From an uncultured Gemmatimonadaceae bacterium (lineage in GTDB: Bacteria; Gemmatimonadota; Gemmatimonadetes; Gemmatimonadales; Gemmatimonadaceae), in NCBI GenBank assembly GCA_963790305.1, contig CAWBOC010000010.1, forward strand, positions 384,001 to 448,000: DNA of 64,000 nucleotides, read 5' to 3'. Shown here one piece after another: positions 39,001 through 42,000 of this stretch; the first letter of the stretch is position 1, and each line of letters begins with the position of its first letter. Position numbers: made by a program.

Positions 39001-42000
39001 CGAACCCTGGTACGGCGAGGACGCATTGCGCGAATCGCCCGTGCTGGATCTCACCCACGCGACGGTTCGCAGCGGGGGCGCGGCCGCCGCCGCGCACGCC
39101 ACGATCGACCGGCTGGCGCCTAACGTGGACGGCTTCTGGATCCACGTCGACGCCGACGTGCTCGATCCCACCGTGGTCCCGGCCGTTGACTCGCCCGAAC
39201 CCGGCGGCCTCAGTCTCGAGGAGCTGGCCGACCTGTTGACTCCGCTCGCCCACCACCCGGCAGCGCTCGGGCTCGAGTTGACGATCTACGATCCGGCGCT
39301 GGACCCCGATCGCTCGAGCGCGTCCCGCCTGACGACGCTCCTCGAGCACGTCCTTGGCGGGCCCGCCTCGGCATTCTGGGAAGGCCTGGCACGGAGTCAC
39401 GCATGATTGCACGCACCTGGCACGGTCGAGTTCCAACCGCCAAAGCGGACGCCTATGAAGCGTTTCTCCACCGTACGGGGCTCGCAGACATCGCGGCAAC
39501 TCCGGGAAACCGGGGCCTGCTGCTGTTACGCCGAAACGAGGGTGGGGTCACCCACTTTCTCCTCACCTCACTCTGGGAGTCCGTGCAGGCGATCGCGCGA
39601 TTCGCCGGCGACGATTACGCGCGGGCTCGCTACTACGACGAGGACGACGACTTTCTTCTCGAGCGCGAAGAGTTCGTCACGCACCACGACGTCGTCGTCG
39701 CCAGGGTGGGCTGAGCCCTACGCGCCGATTCTGCATTCTGAACTCTGACCTCTCTGCCGTTGAACTCCCGTCTTGACCGAAACCACCACACAGAGCTATA
39801 GTGATCGAAGACAACTGAATCCGTGGTGATTTGCCGCCTATTGCCGCCACGTAAAACAAGGTGCTAAAACGCGAACAGCCCGGGCGGAACTTCCGCTCGG
39901 GCGCTTTCGTTTTTCGGTCGACCCCATGTCGGCCGCCGGCGGCCACTCGTCGAGGAGAAGCACACATGGCCGCGCACGCTCCGCATCGCCCAATCGCCGT
40001 CTTTCACGAGCATCCGCACTGGTTCGCTCCGCTATTCGCGGAGCTCGAGCGGCGGGGCTTGCCCTACGATCGGATCGATGCCGCCTCGCATTCCTTCGAT
40101 CCCTCCGAGCGTTCTGCTCCGTATTCGCTGGTGGTCAATCGGGCGAGCCCATCCGCGTATCTCAGGGGACATGCGCAGAGCCTCTTTTACACGCTGCACT
40201 GGCTCCGTCACCTGGATCTCCTCGGCGTTCCGGTCGTGAACGGCGCGGATGTCTACGGGCTCGAGCTCTCGAAGGCGTTGCAGCTCGACCTGCTCGAGGA
40301 GCTCGGGCTCCCCTACCCGCGCGCTCGTGTCATCAACAACCCGGCGCAGGCGCCGGCGATCGCGGCCGCGCTCCGGGCGCCGGTGCTCGTCAAGGCGAAC
40401 GTGGGAGGCAGCGGCGCCGGGATCGTCCGGTACGAGACCACGGCGGCGCTCACGGAGGCGGTCAAGCAGGGGCGCGTCGAGCTCGGCGTCGACGGGACAG
40501 CGCTCGTGCAGGAGTGCGCGCCGCTCCGCGACGGCCACATCACGCGTGTCGAGACGTTAGGCGGCTCGTTTCTCTACGCGATCAACGTATATCCCGCGAC
40601 GGGATCGTTCGATCTCTGCCCGGCGGACGCCTGCCAGACGACCGAGGGCGTCGAGCTCGTGCGCGGGGCGTGCGCCGTCGACGCTCCGCGGACGGGACTT
40701 CGCGTCGAGGCCGCGCGACCGCCCGCGGAGATCATCGCGCAGGTGGAGCACATCGCTCGCGCGGCGCGGCTCGACGTGGGCGGGATCGAGTACCTCGTCG
40801 ATGATCGCGACGGTCGCCACTACTTCTACGACATCAATGCACTCTCGAACTTCGTGGCCGATGCACCCAACGTCATCGGCTTCGATCCGTGGGTGCCGCT
40901 GGTGGACTATCTGGAGCAACGCGCCGGCCTCGCGCAGGCGAAGGTGGCCTGATGCGCTACGGCTACTGGCTGCCCGTCTTCGGTGGGTGGCTGCGCAACG
41001 TCCCTGACGAGGGCATGGCACCGACGTGGGAGTACGTCCGGCGTCTCGCCCAGCGCAGCGAGCAGATCGGGTACGATCTGACGCTCATCGCCGAGCTGTT
41101 TCTCAACGACATCAAGGGCATCACCGCTCCGTCGCTTGATGCGTGGTCGACCGCCGCCGCGCTCGCCGCCGTGACCGAGCGACTCGAGCTCATGATCGCG
41201 GTGCGTCCGACCTTCCATAACCCGGCGATTCTTGCCAAGCAGGCGGCGAGCATCGATCGCATCTCGACCGGGCGCGTGGCGCTCAACGTCGTCTCGTCAT
41301 GGTGGCGCGACGAGGCCCGTCGGTACGGCGTGCAGTTCGACGAGCACGATGACCGCTACGCGCGAACGGCCGAGTGGCTCGCGATCGTCGACGGTGTGTG
41401 GCGCGAGCCCACGTTCAGCTTCCGCGGGAAATACTTCCAGGTCGATGAGACGATCGCCGAGCCGAAGCCGCTCAGGCGGCCGCGTCCTCCGGTCTATGCC
41501 GGTGGAGAGTCGGACGCGGCGAAGGCGCTCATCGCGCGGACGTGCGACGCGTACGTCATGCATGGCGACCCGCCGGAACGCATCGCGCCGCGCATCGCCG
41601 AGCTGGCGAGGCGTCGCGAGGAGGCGGGGCTTCCCCCGATGGGGTTCGGCATGGCGGCGTACGCGATCGTCCGGTCAACGGAGCGGGAGGCGCGGCGCGA
41701 GCTCGAGCGGATCACGAACGTCGCGCCTGGCTCGCCCGGGTATGGCAACTACAGCGACTGGGTGGCGAACACGAGGCTCGAGCAACGGCTGAGCCTCGAG
41801 GACTACTCGGTGTCGAACCGCGGATTGCGCGCCGGACTGGTCGGGACGCCGGAGCAGGTCGCCGACCGCGTGCGAAGCTTCGCCGCGATCGGCGTCGATC
41901 TTCTGCTCCTGCAGTGCAGCCCGCAGGTCGAGGAGATGGAACGCTTCGCCGCCGACGTCATGCCACTGGTTGGCGCTCGGCGCGAGGCGGCGGCGTGACC

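Follow-up and report, generated by a model that had tools for sequence, protein, structure and literature searches.

The C-S-cleaving systems SsuED, MsuED and SfnFG are controlled by proteins of the CysB/Cbl/SfnR type, whereas the operon described here carries a riboswitch or, in other genomes, a leader peptide. In the ytmI/yxe system of Bacillus subtilis, which salvages S-alkylcysteines, an acetyltransferase masks the amino group of the substrate, a YtnJ-type FMNH2-dependent enzyme of the luciferase-like monooxygenase (LLM) family cleaves the C-S bond, and the product is then unmasked; a protein repressor shuts the system down when cysteine is plentiful. Two RNA-level devices are also relevant. 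For the SAM-II riboswitch, the original account (Corbino et al., 2005; PMC1273637) names alpha-proteobacteria, a few other proteobacteria and the Bacteroides group as hosts, and describes a promoter a few bases before the P1 stem as usual. In mycobacteria, polycysteine short ORFs have been proven to act as cysteine attenuators (bioRxiv 10.1101/834739).

Here, we describe a two-gene operon from an uncultured Gemmatimonadaceae bacterium, situated in a 64,000-nucleotide stretch of DNA that was analysed as a whole (hereafter, the window). We consider it reasonably probable that this is a SAM-repressed operon for sulfur amino-acid salvage, and that its substrate is an amino-acid-like organosulfur compound.

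Leader and genes of the operon

Using Rfam cmscan, the entire window was searched, and only one match at gathering score (36 bits for RF00521) was obtained: a SAM-II aptamer ahead of the ligase gene, exactly as the initial annotation had proposed. The features of the operon are as follows.

39773-39802, + strand: sigma-70-like promoter, TTGACC, 18-nt spacer, TATAGT (10/12 hexamer matches)
39813-39884, + strand: SAM-II (SAM_alpha, RF00521) aptamer (42.0 bits against a cut-off of 36, E 4.4e-06, model positions 1-79)
39878-39914, + strand: intrinsic-terminator-like expression platform, an 11-pair GC-rich hairpin (39878-39902) with a T-run directly 3' of it, GCTTTCGTTTTT
39952-39957, + strand: Shine-Dalgarno sequence GAGGAG, read from the sequence, 8 nt ahead of the ligase ATG (39966)
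39966-40952, + strand: ATP-grasp ligase of 328 aa with a predicted LysX/ArgX/RimK-like fold (weak family matches and predicted structure)
40952-41998, + strand: LLM of 348 aa, presumably FMNH2-dependent, 3RAO subfamily (profile and PDB matches); its start overlaps the ligase stop

The aptamer shows a P1 stem (CGTGG/CCACG), the conserved loop UUUG and the 3' GCUAAA segment and, judged from its sequence, is a real and complete SAM-II aptamer. A single promoter-like site was found where shuffled sequence would yield 0.2, and transcription from it would begin a few bases ahead of the aptamer. With a promoter-like site before P1 and a terminator-like hairpin after the aptamer, the operon has the 5' leader layout expected of SAM-II. 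When SAM is plentiful, the aptamer would fold around it, the GC-rich hairpin and U-tract would terminate the transcript, and the genes would be off; when SAM is low, read-through would allow the ligase and the flavin monooxygenase to be made. Thermodynamic modelling did not reveal a switch: in riboswitch leaders, the candidate antiterminator did scarcely better than shuffled sequences (0.65 vs 0.57).

A second copy, placed before metH by the initial annotation, was recovered at C9:977838-977912 with 40.4 bits and indeed has metH downstream; it is the only other SAM-II in the host genome. Within the host's family, Gemmatimonadaceae, SAM-II was detected in 100 of 101 genomes, including the unpublished G157, G418 and G419, and exceeded the cut-off in 89. 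The predicted range of SAM-II thus now includes Gemmatimonadota, and the element is near-universal in one family. A search of the open literature found no paper on SAM-II in Gemmatimonadota or on this gene pair, in keeping with the earlier statement that neither SAM-II in this phylum nor the regulon was found described.

Upstream of the ligase, the aptamer recurs with a near-identical core in 24 of 87 Gemmatimonadota orthologous loci; the recurrence claimed earlier therefore stands, whereas the frequency given for it (about 8 of 37) was too low. All 24 loci carry a hairpin and a U-rich tract after the aptamer, and 11 of them (the window and ten orthologous-locus copies) reach the Rfam cut-off. 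In a cross-phylum set, SAM-II precedes the operon in six of 80 loci, and in one relative (L025) it lies ahead of panB. The 30 distinct copies differ so little that they offer next to no covariation: UUUG and CUAAA, the pseudoknot segments, hardly vary, P1 has one compensatory pair (CCTGG/CCAGG in L010), and one U-G to C-G change is seen, in the metH copy.

The two enzymes and their genomic company

The ligase resembles known families only distantly. It exceeds the Pfam cut-off for LysX_preATP_grasp (28.6 bits against 27) and falls short of those for RimK (16.2 against 21), rimK_fam TIGR00768 (50.1 against 143.4) and LysX TIGR02144 (29.3 against 275.6); other weak matches are to MptN (24.4 bits), GRASP_SAV_5884 (26.7 bits) and MvdD (19.7 bits). 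The structural comparison reproduced the LysX/ArgX-like fold of the initial annotation: the predicted model has a pLDDT of 88.0, with residues 222-243 below 50, and Foldseek matched it to LysX (3vpd, E 4.2e-20), ArgX (3vpb, TM 0.76/0.87) and, at rank 7, the graspetide maturase PsnB (E 1.2e-17). Foldseek and Pfam thus agree on an ATP-grasp fold with a pre-ATP-grasp domain. The three conserved cysteines noted earlier also held up: of 166 orthologues, 162 have the motif CPA[D/E]xC and 159 have a third Cys within 35 residues; all three lie in or beside the flexible loop of the model. As previously reported, no LysW-like carrier accompanies the gene: TIGR01206 has no match in the host genome (94.3% complete), and none of the 87 and 80 loci inspected has a small carrier gene next to the pair.

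The downstream gene product matches Bac_luciferase (210.8 bits) and had been described as SsuD/SfnG-like. This description is correct insofar as the enzyme shares 27-34% identity with these proteins, and all of its characterised relatives (SfnG 8T0U, 180.4 bits; MsuD, 152.8; SsuD, 134.8) cleave C-S bonds. However, it misses the curated cut-offs for SfnG (TIGR04021, 244.6 bits against 382.95) and SsuD (TIGR03565, 186 against 518.2) by a wide margin, and its nearest solved relatives are far closer: 3RAO from Bacillus cereus (435.5 bits, about 60% identity) and 8VW6 (375.2 bits), both over the full length. Arg226 and His228 of the R-L-H motif, which we take to be active-site residues in SsuD numbering, are replaced by Ala and Tyr in the LLM, 3RAO and 8VW6, and the aligned motif reads A-A-Y in the LLM and 3RAO. 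By score and alignment, the enzyme is neither SsuD nor SfnG and belongs to the 3RAO subfamily. The papers found that cite 3RAO use it solely as a search model or mention it as a structural neighbour, and no mention of 8VW6 was retrieved.

The recurrence of the two genes proved firmer than first claimed. Of 401 Gemmatimonadota genomes, 92 have an ATP-grasp orthologue of at least 46% identity, a count that takes in the unpublished G157 and G182, and at 83 of 87 loci the LLM gene comes directly after that of the ligase. The initial annotation placed the pair in Gemmatimonadales, but it is not peculiar to that order: a cross-phylum genome scan based on a six-sequence protein alignment found it in at least 592 species genomes of many phyla, and in a set of 80 loci spanning about 14 phylum-level groups, 69 have the LLM next to the ligase. 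Judged from titles and the openings of abstracts, none of the papers found concerns the pair. ATP-grasp paralogues of about 30% identity (L090-L092) lack an LLM; L091 and L092 have no partner gene in common and gave no functional lead.

Among Gemmatimonadota, the neighbour survey found no conserved gene besides the ligase, the LLM and a reductase, namely an SsuE-type FMN reductase (TIGR03567, 147 bits) whose gene immediately precedes that of the ligase at 22 of 87 loci. At L049, a flavin oxidoreductase of the OYE (Old Yellow Enzyme) type is encoded downstream. Neither the window nor the host genome has an SsuE-type or FMN_red family gene; the host has only two Flavin_Reduct genes, both away from the operon. 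Elsewhere, the company of the pair is metabolic: in Spirosoma oryzicola two amino-acid permease genes lie between ligase and LLM, in five Hymenobacter loci a BcaP-like permease gene sits just 3' of the LLM gene, and single loci have CysM directly upstream (L129) or, downstream, an enzyme resembling CuyA and D-cysteine desulfhydrase (L104) or an M24 peptidase (L127).

These observations bear on classical desulfonation, the initial annotation in its most literal sense, in which an SsuD/SfnG-type LLM would free sulfite or sulfinate for later reduction and assimilation into cysteine and methionine, with the ligase as an accessory. Such a role would fit the identity of the best characterised relatives, the SsuE-type reductases within the operon, the relative of CuyA-like cysteate sulfo-lyases at L104 and a regulation by sulfur amino acids, which suits sulfate-starvation systems. 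We nonetheless regard it as unlikely, given the distance from the curated families and the lost Arg/His motif, and the Bacteroidota pairs adjoin amino-acid permeases rather than sulfonate ABC transporters. Moreover, neither a sulfite reductase (NIR_SIR) nor a PAPS reductase was found in the host genome at 94.3% completeness, and NIR_SIR, a single Pfam family sought in incomplete genomes, was seen in 19 of the 92 pair-holding genomes and not in the other 73. Sulfite is therefore improbable as a useful product, and the operon probably yields something else; of the C-S cleavage of the sulfonate/sulfone kind envisaged earlier, the release of sulfite has become doubtful. The pair itself shows no association with the lack of sulfite reductase (NIR_SIR in 19 of 92 holders vs 56 of 309 other genomes).

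The SAM-II copy ahead of metH invites another interpretation, in which the ligase would add glutamate to a cofactor tail in the manner of CofF/MptN and the LLM would be an F420- or folate-linked reductase supplying methyl groups to methionine synthase. This would explain co-regulation with metH, and it can draw on the weak MptN match, on LLM matches to F420-type families (e.g., TIGR03560, 147.4 bits) and on the aptamer before panB at L025, whose product uses methylene-tetrahydrofolate. We judge it very improbable: FMNH2-dependent C-S-cleaving enzymes are the best relatives of the LLM by a wide margin, the reductase found within the operon at 22 loci is of the SsuE type and thus FMN-linked, the neighbours are amino-acid permeases and CysM, and the leaders that predominate across phyla are those with cysteine codons.

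Cysteine- and methionine-rich leader ORFs

Most orthologous loci without the riboswitch have instead a short Cys/Met-rich leader ORF followed by a terminator upstream of the operon. With a strong window defined as at least four Cys codons per ten codons and the reverse strand as control, strong windows were found in 30 of 61 non-riboswitch Gemmatimonadota leaders (4/85 on the reverse strand) and in none of the 24 riboswitch leaders. The cross-phylum set gave 27 of 80 loci against two of 80 in the control; among its riboswitch loci, only L150 has one. Here, as at L026, riboswitch and leader ORF stand in tandem. Methionine is co-enriched, with 79 Met in the 51 best windows, although the choice of windows slightly favours Met.

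A terminator follows 40 of the 51 best Cys-rich leaders. The spacing recurs in most of 43 leaders: 27-60 nt separate the final Cys codon from the stop codon, and 21-47 nt separate the stop from the terminator. Those that deviate come mainly from Bacteroidota and have the stop directly 3' of the Cys run. Under minimum-free-energy folding, the terminator was present in every modelled state for 39 of 40 leaders, and one of 40 behaved as a switch. In 22 of 43 cases, pairing is possible between the 5' arm of the terminator and the 3' portion of the leader ORF, and the comparison with shuffled sequence showed no difference (0.55 vs 0.55). Rfam returned no known family at gathering score for 13 leader-peptide loci. 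By analogy with the mycobacterial attenuators, an ORF with such a run of Cys codons is likely a sensor of charged cysteine tRNA, and the intrinsic terminator after it suggests transcriptional control.

G039 has a four-Cys leader ahead of the ATP-grasp operon and nowhere else (one of 14 pattern matches, all of which were examined), which lends no support to a general cysteine regulon using such leaders. In four other relatives, with six loci examined in each, no four-Cys leader qualified, and pattern counts across the five relatives did not exceed a reversed-pattern control. A scan of the host genome for Cys-rich short ORFs with terminators gave six candidates, none convincing; the host seems to rely on the riboswitch only.

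Could the short ORFs instead encode precursor peptides or other dedicated peptide substrates that the ligase and LLM modify, as happens in ribosomally made natural products, the terminator merely setting the ratio of precursor to enzyme? The nearest folds of the ligase do act on peptide or protein carboxylates (LysX/ArgX on LysW, RimK on S6, and PsnB), its weak matches to GRASP_SAV_5884 and MvdD are to peptide maturases, and the G039 leader is confined to this operon. Yet a SAM-II aptamer occupies the same place in 24 of 87 and six of 80 operons, where strong Cys windows are absent save for L150, and the identity of the ligase family is unchanged in genomes lacking the peptide. The leader peptides, as far as they were read, vary in length between about 10 and about 60 residues (e.g., MACCCCCCPA) and have only Cys/Met codons in common, and FMN reductase, amino-acid permeases and CysM are metabolic neighbours. 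A peptide-modifying role is thus highly improbable.

For sulfur amino-acid salvage, in contrast, the leaders provide independent backing, because they replace the riboswitch in other lineages. With a riboswitch here, a Cys/Met leader elsewhere and both in tandem at two loci, the operon appears to be coupled to sulfur amino-acid status by two independent means. The initial annotation had predicted a role in methionine and SAM supply; the link to sulfur amino acids is upheld, whereas its emphasis is not. Cysteine (with Met), rather than SAM, is the signal that prevails across lineages, and the product is therefore more likely to supply cysteine, or reduced sulfur in general, than methionine in particular.

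A proposed salvage route and its known counterparts

In the route that we favour, the enzymes would take as substrate an amino-acid-like organosulfur compound imported by the cell, and its sulfur would pass back to the cysteine, methionine and SAM pools; an amino-acid-type substrate is suggested by the permeases, CysM, CuyA-like lyase and M24 peptidase that adjoin the pair in other genomes. By analogy with its structural relatives, the ligase may mask the substrate's amino or carboxyl group in an amide bond made at the expense of ATP. With FMNH2 from an SsuE-type or other flavin reductase, the 3RAO-type LLM might then hydroxylate the carbon beside the sulfur such that the C-S bond breaks, possibly yielding a thiol-level product rather than sulfite, and ordinary peptidases could take off the mask. 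More tentatively, we raise the possibility that the pair constitutes a new and widespread cysteine-salvage route of hosts unable to reduce sulfate, in which an S-substituted or oxidised sulfur amino acid, once imported, would be amide-masked by the ligase (a task that falls to an acetyltransferase in Bacillus) and its C-S bond cleaved by a new, 3RAO-type subfamily of FMNH2 monooxygenase to give a thiol-level product directly, under a cysteine attenuator, SAM-II or both in at least a dozen phyla.

Two unrelated predicted RNA-level sensors, SAM-II and the Cys/Met-codon leader, converge on one two-enzyme module in at least 592 species genomes of soil and freshwater phyla, and provide natural cases of a riboswitch and a putative leader-peptide attenuator trading places or acting in series. 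As most sampled Gemmatimonadota lack a detected sulfite reductase, the module may be a main gateway for organic sulfur in this phylum, which is abundant in soil. The work also supplies a functional prediction for 3RAO, a solved protein, and for an unnamed ATP-grasp family; cultivable carriers of the pair exist in Hymenobacter, Spirosoma and Pontibacter.

Set against the systems with which we began, the proposed logic is that of B. subtilis ytmI/yxe, with an ATP-grasp ligase presumably in place of the acetyltransferase, an LLM only distantly related to the YtnJ type (61.7 bits) and an RNA leader instead of a protein repressor. With SsuED, MsuED and SfnFG, the operon shares a luciferase-like TIM barrel, an SsuE-type reductase in many orthologous operons and expression linked to sulfur status, here predicted from the leaders. 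It differs from them in an LLM below all curated cut-offs with the SsuD Arg/His motif replaced, in its constant pairing with an ATP-grasp ligase, and in hosts that mostly lack a detected sulfite reductase. By far the closest solved relatives of the LLM, 3RAO and 8VW6, are both structural-genomics entries to which no reaction is assigned. LysX/ArgX and RimK, all ATP-grasp amino-acid ligases, give the best fold (TM 0.73-0.76) and the best PDB sequence matches for the ligase; however, identity is 15-20%, scores are far under the family cut-offs, no LysW match was found in the genome or beside the gene, and the family here has an extra flexible loop with three conserved cysteines.

The mycobacterial polycysteine attenuators resemble the leaders of orthologous operons in that a short ORF containing a stretch of Cys codons lies 5' of the genes. 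Their action is on translation (bioRxiv 10.1101/834739), whereas the orthologous leaders carry an intrinsic terminator, occur in many phyla, and are interchangeable or in tandem with SAM-II; the window itself has no such leader ORF. Finally, the aptamer matches the metA-type SAM-II of alpha-proteobacteria in sequence, P1 stem and promoter placement, and in an intrinsic terminator between aptamer and ORF that predicts an OFF switch, as given in the original account (PMC1273637). One copy here likewise precedes a methionine-synthesis gene, metH. What sets this riboswitch apart is its host, a member of Gemmatimonadota, and its target: an ATP-grasp ligase and an LLM rather than any known methionine or SAM gene.

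The riboswitch unit and its occurrence

The initial annotation placed a SAM-II aptamer before the ATP-grasp ligase gene, and an Rfam scan bears this out: the full RF00521 model is matched above its cut-off and is the sole gathering-score match in the whole 64-kb window. The elements surrounding it, all on the forward strand, are listed below.

Features of the riboswitch and the gene pair (window positions)
39773-39802, +, sigma-70-like promoter TTGACC-18-TATAGT, read from the sequence 5' of the aptamer
39813-39884, +, SAM_alpha (SAM-II, RF00521) aptamer; Rfam scan, 42.0 bits, Rfam cut-off 36, E 4.4e-06, full model
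39878-39902, +, GC-rich hairpin of 11 pairs, then GCTTTCGTTTTT, 3' of the aptamer
39952-39957, +, Shine-Dalgarno GAGGAG, before the ATG at 39966
39966-40952, +, ATP-grasp ligase ORF, 328 aa; LysX_preATP_grasp, 28.6 bits
40952-41998, +, luciferase-like monooxygenase (LLM) ORF, 348 aa; Bac_luciferase, 210.8 bits

Together, promoter, aptamer, hairpin, Shine-Dalgarno and start codon form a complete regulatory unit. The layout is the SAM-II arrangement set out in the relevant passages of Corbino et al. (2005; PMC1273637), where the promoter is placed a few nucleotides 5' of P1 and putative terminators stand between P2 and the ORF, a layout interpreted as an OFF switch. We are highly confident that the window holds a real and ordinary SAM-II riboswitch, in a host phylum where the class is undescribed. 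The only other copy in the genome, also claimed previously, was recovered before metH at C9:977838-977912 (40.4 bits), likewise with a hairpin and T-run; the two copies have the 5' flank ACAACTGAA in common. Upstream of the window copy, 38420-39714 (+) holds an arginase-family gene (115 bits) and, overlapping it, a small ABM-like ORF whose 19.6 bits fall short of the cut-off. Both stop 59 nt 5' of the riboswitch promoter, and their neighbourhood with the pair is not kept in other genomes.

Nearly every genome of the window's family carries SAM-II, which was detected in 100 of 101 (E <=0.001; 89 above the cut-off; one to five copies each), a count that includes the unpublished G157, G418 and G419. 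A ligase orthologue (>=46% identity) is present in 92 of 401 sampled Gemmatimonadota genomes, including the unpublished G157 and G182, and a second ligase-like class at about 30% identity stands clearly apart. For closer comparison, 87 loci were examined, 30 from the 401-genome search and 57 fetched, leaving out the unpublished G157 and G182 and the fragmented G213, G286 and G333. The LLM gene lies directly 3' of the ligase gene in 83 of these; the exceptions are L020, L036, L082 and L086, of which L082 stops about 500 nt past the ligase. With a sequence profile built from the aptamer, a same-strand copy was found 5' of the operon in 24 of the 87 loci (21 from the window's family, three from the neighbouring one), in every case with a GC-rich hairpin and U-rich tract before the start codon. 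Scores at or above the Rfam cut-off were obtained for 11 of these copies (that of the window, 9/20 in one scanned set and 1/3 in another); the other 13 fall marginally below it despite almost identical cores. In one locus (L012), the riboswitch precedes a three-gene unit of SsuE-type reductase, ligase and LLM. A separate, strong SAM-II (60.6 bits) lies on the opposite strand of another locus (L025 1019-1094, −; G076), some 200 nt away from the riboswitch of the ligase gene itself, and precedes a panB-like gene (3-methyl-2-oxobutanoate hydroxymethyltransferase), an unusual SAM-II target.

The pair itself extends much further. A representative search with the ligase among 1.84 billion proteins returned 256 clusters at E <1e-30, with named members from Peregrinibacteria, Cyclobacteriaceae and a green-alga transcriptome, and a scan in which each species was represented by a single genome showed a relative in at least 592 genomes. 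In the 80 cross-phylum loci kept (Acidobacteriota 26, Gemmatimonadota 20, Bacteroidota 19, Planctomycetota 4, Chloroflexota 2 and nine other groups with one each), the LLM gene directly follows in 69, and three more leave no room for it; the aptamer occurs in just six of the 80, all labelled Gemmatimonadota. Hence the earlier description of pair and riboswitch as recurrent in Gemmatimonadales stands for that group, but is too narrow for the pair.

Cysteine- and methionine-rich leader ORFs

Besides the aptamer and an SsuE-type reductase gene, inspection of the regions upstream of orthologous operons revealed a third situation: a short ORF with many Cys and Met codons about 150-200 nt 5' of the first gene, usually with a terminator after it (for example ...MMCCCMCCMC..., ...CACMCMCMCAC... 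and MACCCCCCPA). Leaders were scored by the maximum number of Cys codons per stop-free 10-codon window within 400 nt upstream, for 85 loci (L074, without upstream DNA, and L089, below the identity filter, were left out). Four or more Cys codons were reached by 30 of 61 non-riboswitch leaders, as against 4 of 85 reverse strands and none of the 24 riboswitch leaders. The cross-phylum set gave 27/80 against 2/80 in the control, with positives in Acidobacteriota (9/26), Bacteroidota (10/19), Gemmatimonadota (6/20), Chloroflexota and one other group. Met codons are enriched too (79 in the 51 best windows, a choice of window that tilts slightly toward Met). Thirteen Cys-leader loci matched no Rfam family at cut-off, and in the genome of the window itself no Cys leader was convincing. 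In one sampled genome (G039), four consecutive Cys codons occur 14 times, and only the ATP-grasp leader combines short ORF, terminator and a gene behind; strong Cys leaders therefore form no general cysteine regulon there.

Two loci, L026 (G307; about 1150-1470) and L150 (3629-4030), carry both devices in tandem: the aptamer and a hairpin come first, then the Cys/Met leader ORF with a second terminator, and last the ligase gene. Such leaders may act as a gate with two inputs, or may represent a stage in the exchange of one leader type for the other.

A rival reading would make the pair a peptide-modifying system with Cys-rich peptides as its substrate, and the graspetide maturase PsnB is indeed among the lower-ranked structural matches of the ligase. 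Against it, the riboswitch leaders pair the same two genes with no such peptide at the scoring threshold. In mycobacteria, polycysteine short ORFs have been shown by experiment to be cysteine attenuators acting on translation (bioRxiv 10.1101/834739).

A switch driven by ribosome position was not reproduced by simple folding: whether the ribosome occupies the final Cys codon, occupies the stop codon or is absent, the terminator is the fold of lowest energy in 39 of 40 leaders. As long as its 3' arm has yet to be transcribed, the 5' arm of the terminator can pair with the 3' portion of the leader ORF in 22 of 43 leaders, equal to shuffled upstream sequence (mean 0.55 vs 0.55). In riboswitch leaders the terminator arm can pair with aptamer nucleotides in 20 of 23, slightly above shuffled sequence (0.65 vs 0.57). 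Since simple folding shows no switch, the switching helices of both leader types are ones that we infer. Spacing is recurrent in most of the 43 leaders, with the last Cys 27-60 nt 5' of the stop and the stop 21-47 nt 5' of the terminator; exceptions are mostly Bacteroidota leaders, in which the stop directly follows the Cys run.

The ligase and the monooxygenase

The ligase scores far below the curated cut-offs of its nearest families (rimK_fam, 50.1 against 143.4; LysX, 29.3 against 275.6), and a PDB sequence search gave only weak matches, to LysX and RimK; by sequence it is an ATP-grasp protein for which no curated family is a fit. An AlphaFold model from a 33-sequence alignment (pLDDT 88.0, pTM 0.87) is disordered only at residues 1-3 and 222-243. 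Foldseek ranked LysX 3vpd (E 4.2e-20), ArgX 3vpb (TM 0.76) and LysX/ArgX 5k2m first, followed by PsnB, RimK and D-Ala-D-Ala ligases. Of 166 orthologues, 162 have a CPA[D/E]xC motif and 159 a third Cys at most 35 residues away; the first motif Cys (Cys218) is placed shortly before the disordered loop, which starts at the second (Cys223). A paralogous ATP-grasp class (30-37% identity) was seen in L090-L092 (G386, G325, G082) and about 30 other genomes. None of these three fetched loci has an adjoining LLM gene, and L091 and L092 have no partner gene in common, while L091 still has a Cys-containing short ORF and terminator upstream. A full-length family member with 37% identity and an NYCPADGC motif (P0212), from the MMETSP transcriptome of the green alga Chloroparvula japonica, may represent a eukaryotic gene or contaminating bacterial sequence.

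The LLM was previously described as SfnG/SsuD-like. It does match SfnG (180.4 bits), MsuD (152.8) and SsuD (134.8), but two structural-genomics entries are much closer: 3RAO from Bacillus cereus (435.5 bits, roughly 60% identity by eye) and 8VW6 (375.2 bits). Two papers checked for it cite 3RAO just as a molecular-replacement model or structural neighbour (PMC11588060, PMC8795539). No mention of 8VW6 was found in the open literature. In the alignment, the R-L-H motif of SsuD, which we take to hold Arg226 and His228 in its residue numbering, is replaced by A-A-Y in the LLM and 3RAO, and 8VW6 likewise carries Tyr in place of the His. According to the MsuD paper (PMC8234197), conservation of the sulfonate site does not extend beyond SsuD. 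On these grounds the LLM falls in the family's C-S-cleaving branch, yet in a separate subfamily without an assigned substrate. In L071 (G336; 6011-6965), the LLM orthologue falls into two tblastn pieces (87% then 45% identity) and the Cys motif region of the ligase is absent in frame; this operon is probably decaying.

Pieces of SusC/RagA-type TonB-dependent receptor genes follow the LLM gene in different frames at 41970-46815 (+), on to about 48716, and look frameshifted or decayed. A SusC gene cluster likewise lies near the pair in Spirosoma oryzicola.

SusC/RagA pieces 3' of the LLM gene
41970-42524, +, model positions 100-211; overlaps the end of the LLM gene
43589-45127, +, model positions 3-357
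45460-46815, +, model positions 631-784

Sulfur metabolism and a possible role

An SsuE-type NADPH:FMN reductase gene (147 bits on TIGR03567, cut-off 164) lies directly 5' of the ligase in 22 of the 87 Gemmatimonadota loci, which hold no conserved neighbour besides reductase, ligase and LLM. Elsewhere, two annotated amino-acid permease genes separate ligase and LLM on a Spirosoma oryzicola plasmid, and a BcaP-like amino-acid permease gene follows the LLM in five Hymenobacter loci. CysM directly upstream (L129), a CuyA/D-cysteine-desulfhydrase-like PLP enzyme downstream (L104), an M24 peptidase (L127), a nitrilase-family hydrolase (L125), a group-II decarboxylase (L171) and a BshB-like deacetylase (L093) occur once each, and SoxY lies downstream in L120 and L139. 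Together these neighbours point to an amino-acid-like sulfur compound and amide chemistry; a cofactor or one-carbon role is a rival reading.

Classical desulfonation, yielding sulfite, is a further rival; it has the SsuD-family matches and the SsuE-type reductase on its side, and the replaced R-L-H motif against it. Family searches of the window's genome (94.3% complete) found neither PAPS/APS reductase nor NIR_SIR sulfite reductase, nor LysW, FMN_red reductase or an LLM paralogue; three Cys/Met-metabolism PLP enzymes, two CysK/CysM-like genes and two Flavin_Reduct genes are present. NIR_SIR occurs in 75 of 401 Gemmatimonadota genomes (including the unpublished G057) and shows no association with the pair (19/92 pair-holders vs 56/309 others). 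Judged by gene content, the ordinary route of sulfite use is nevertheless closed to four in five carriers, and much of Gemmatimonadota may depend on reduced or organic sulfur.

Two independent devices put the pair under sulfur amino-acid control, which supports the role in methionine and SAM supply predicted initially, now widened to cysteine, methionine and SAM supply; we consider this role probable. Far more tentative, and in our view rather doubtful, is a mechanism in which the cell would import an S-substituted amino acid, the ligase would mask it, and the 3RAO-type monooxygenase would then break its C-S bond to give a thiol-level product. It is modelled on the S-alkylcysteine salvage of Bacillus subtilis, which is acetylation-dependent; masking would fall to the ligase here and to acetylation there.

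Searches of the open literature, with subscription journals and the Rfam full alignment outside their scope, yielded nothing on SAM-II in Gemmatimonadota or on the pair, in agreement with the initial annotation. SAM-II, the leader-peptide attenuator, the two-component flavin monooxygenase and the ATP-grasp ligase are all already known classes; new are the combination of these parts, its breadth and the interchange of two sensors before one pair.
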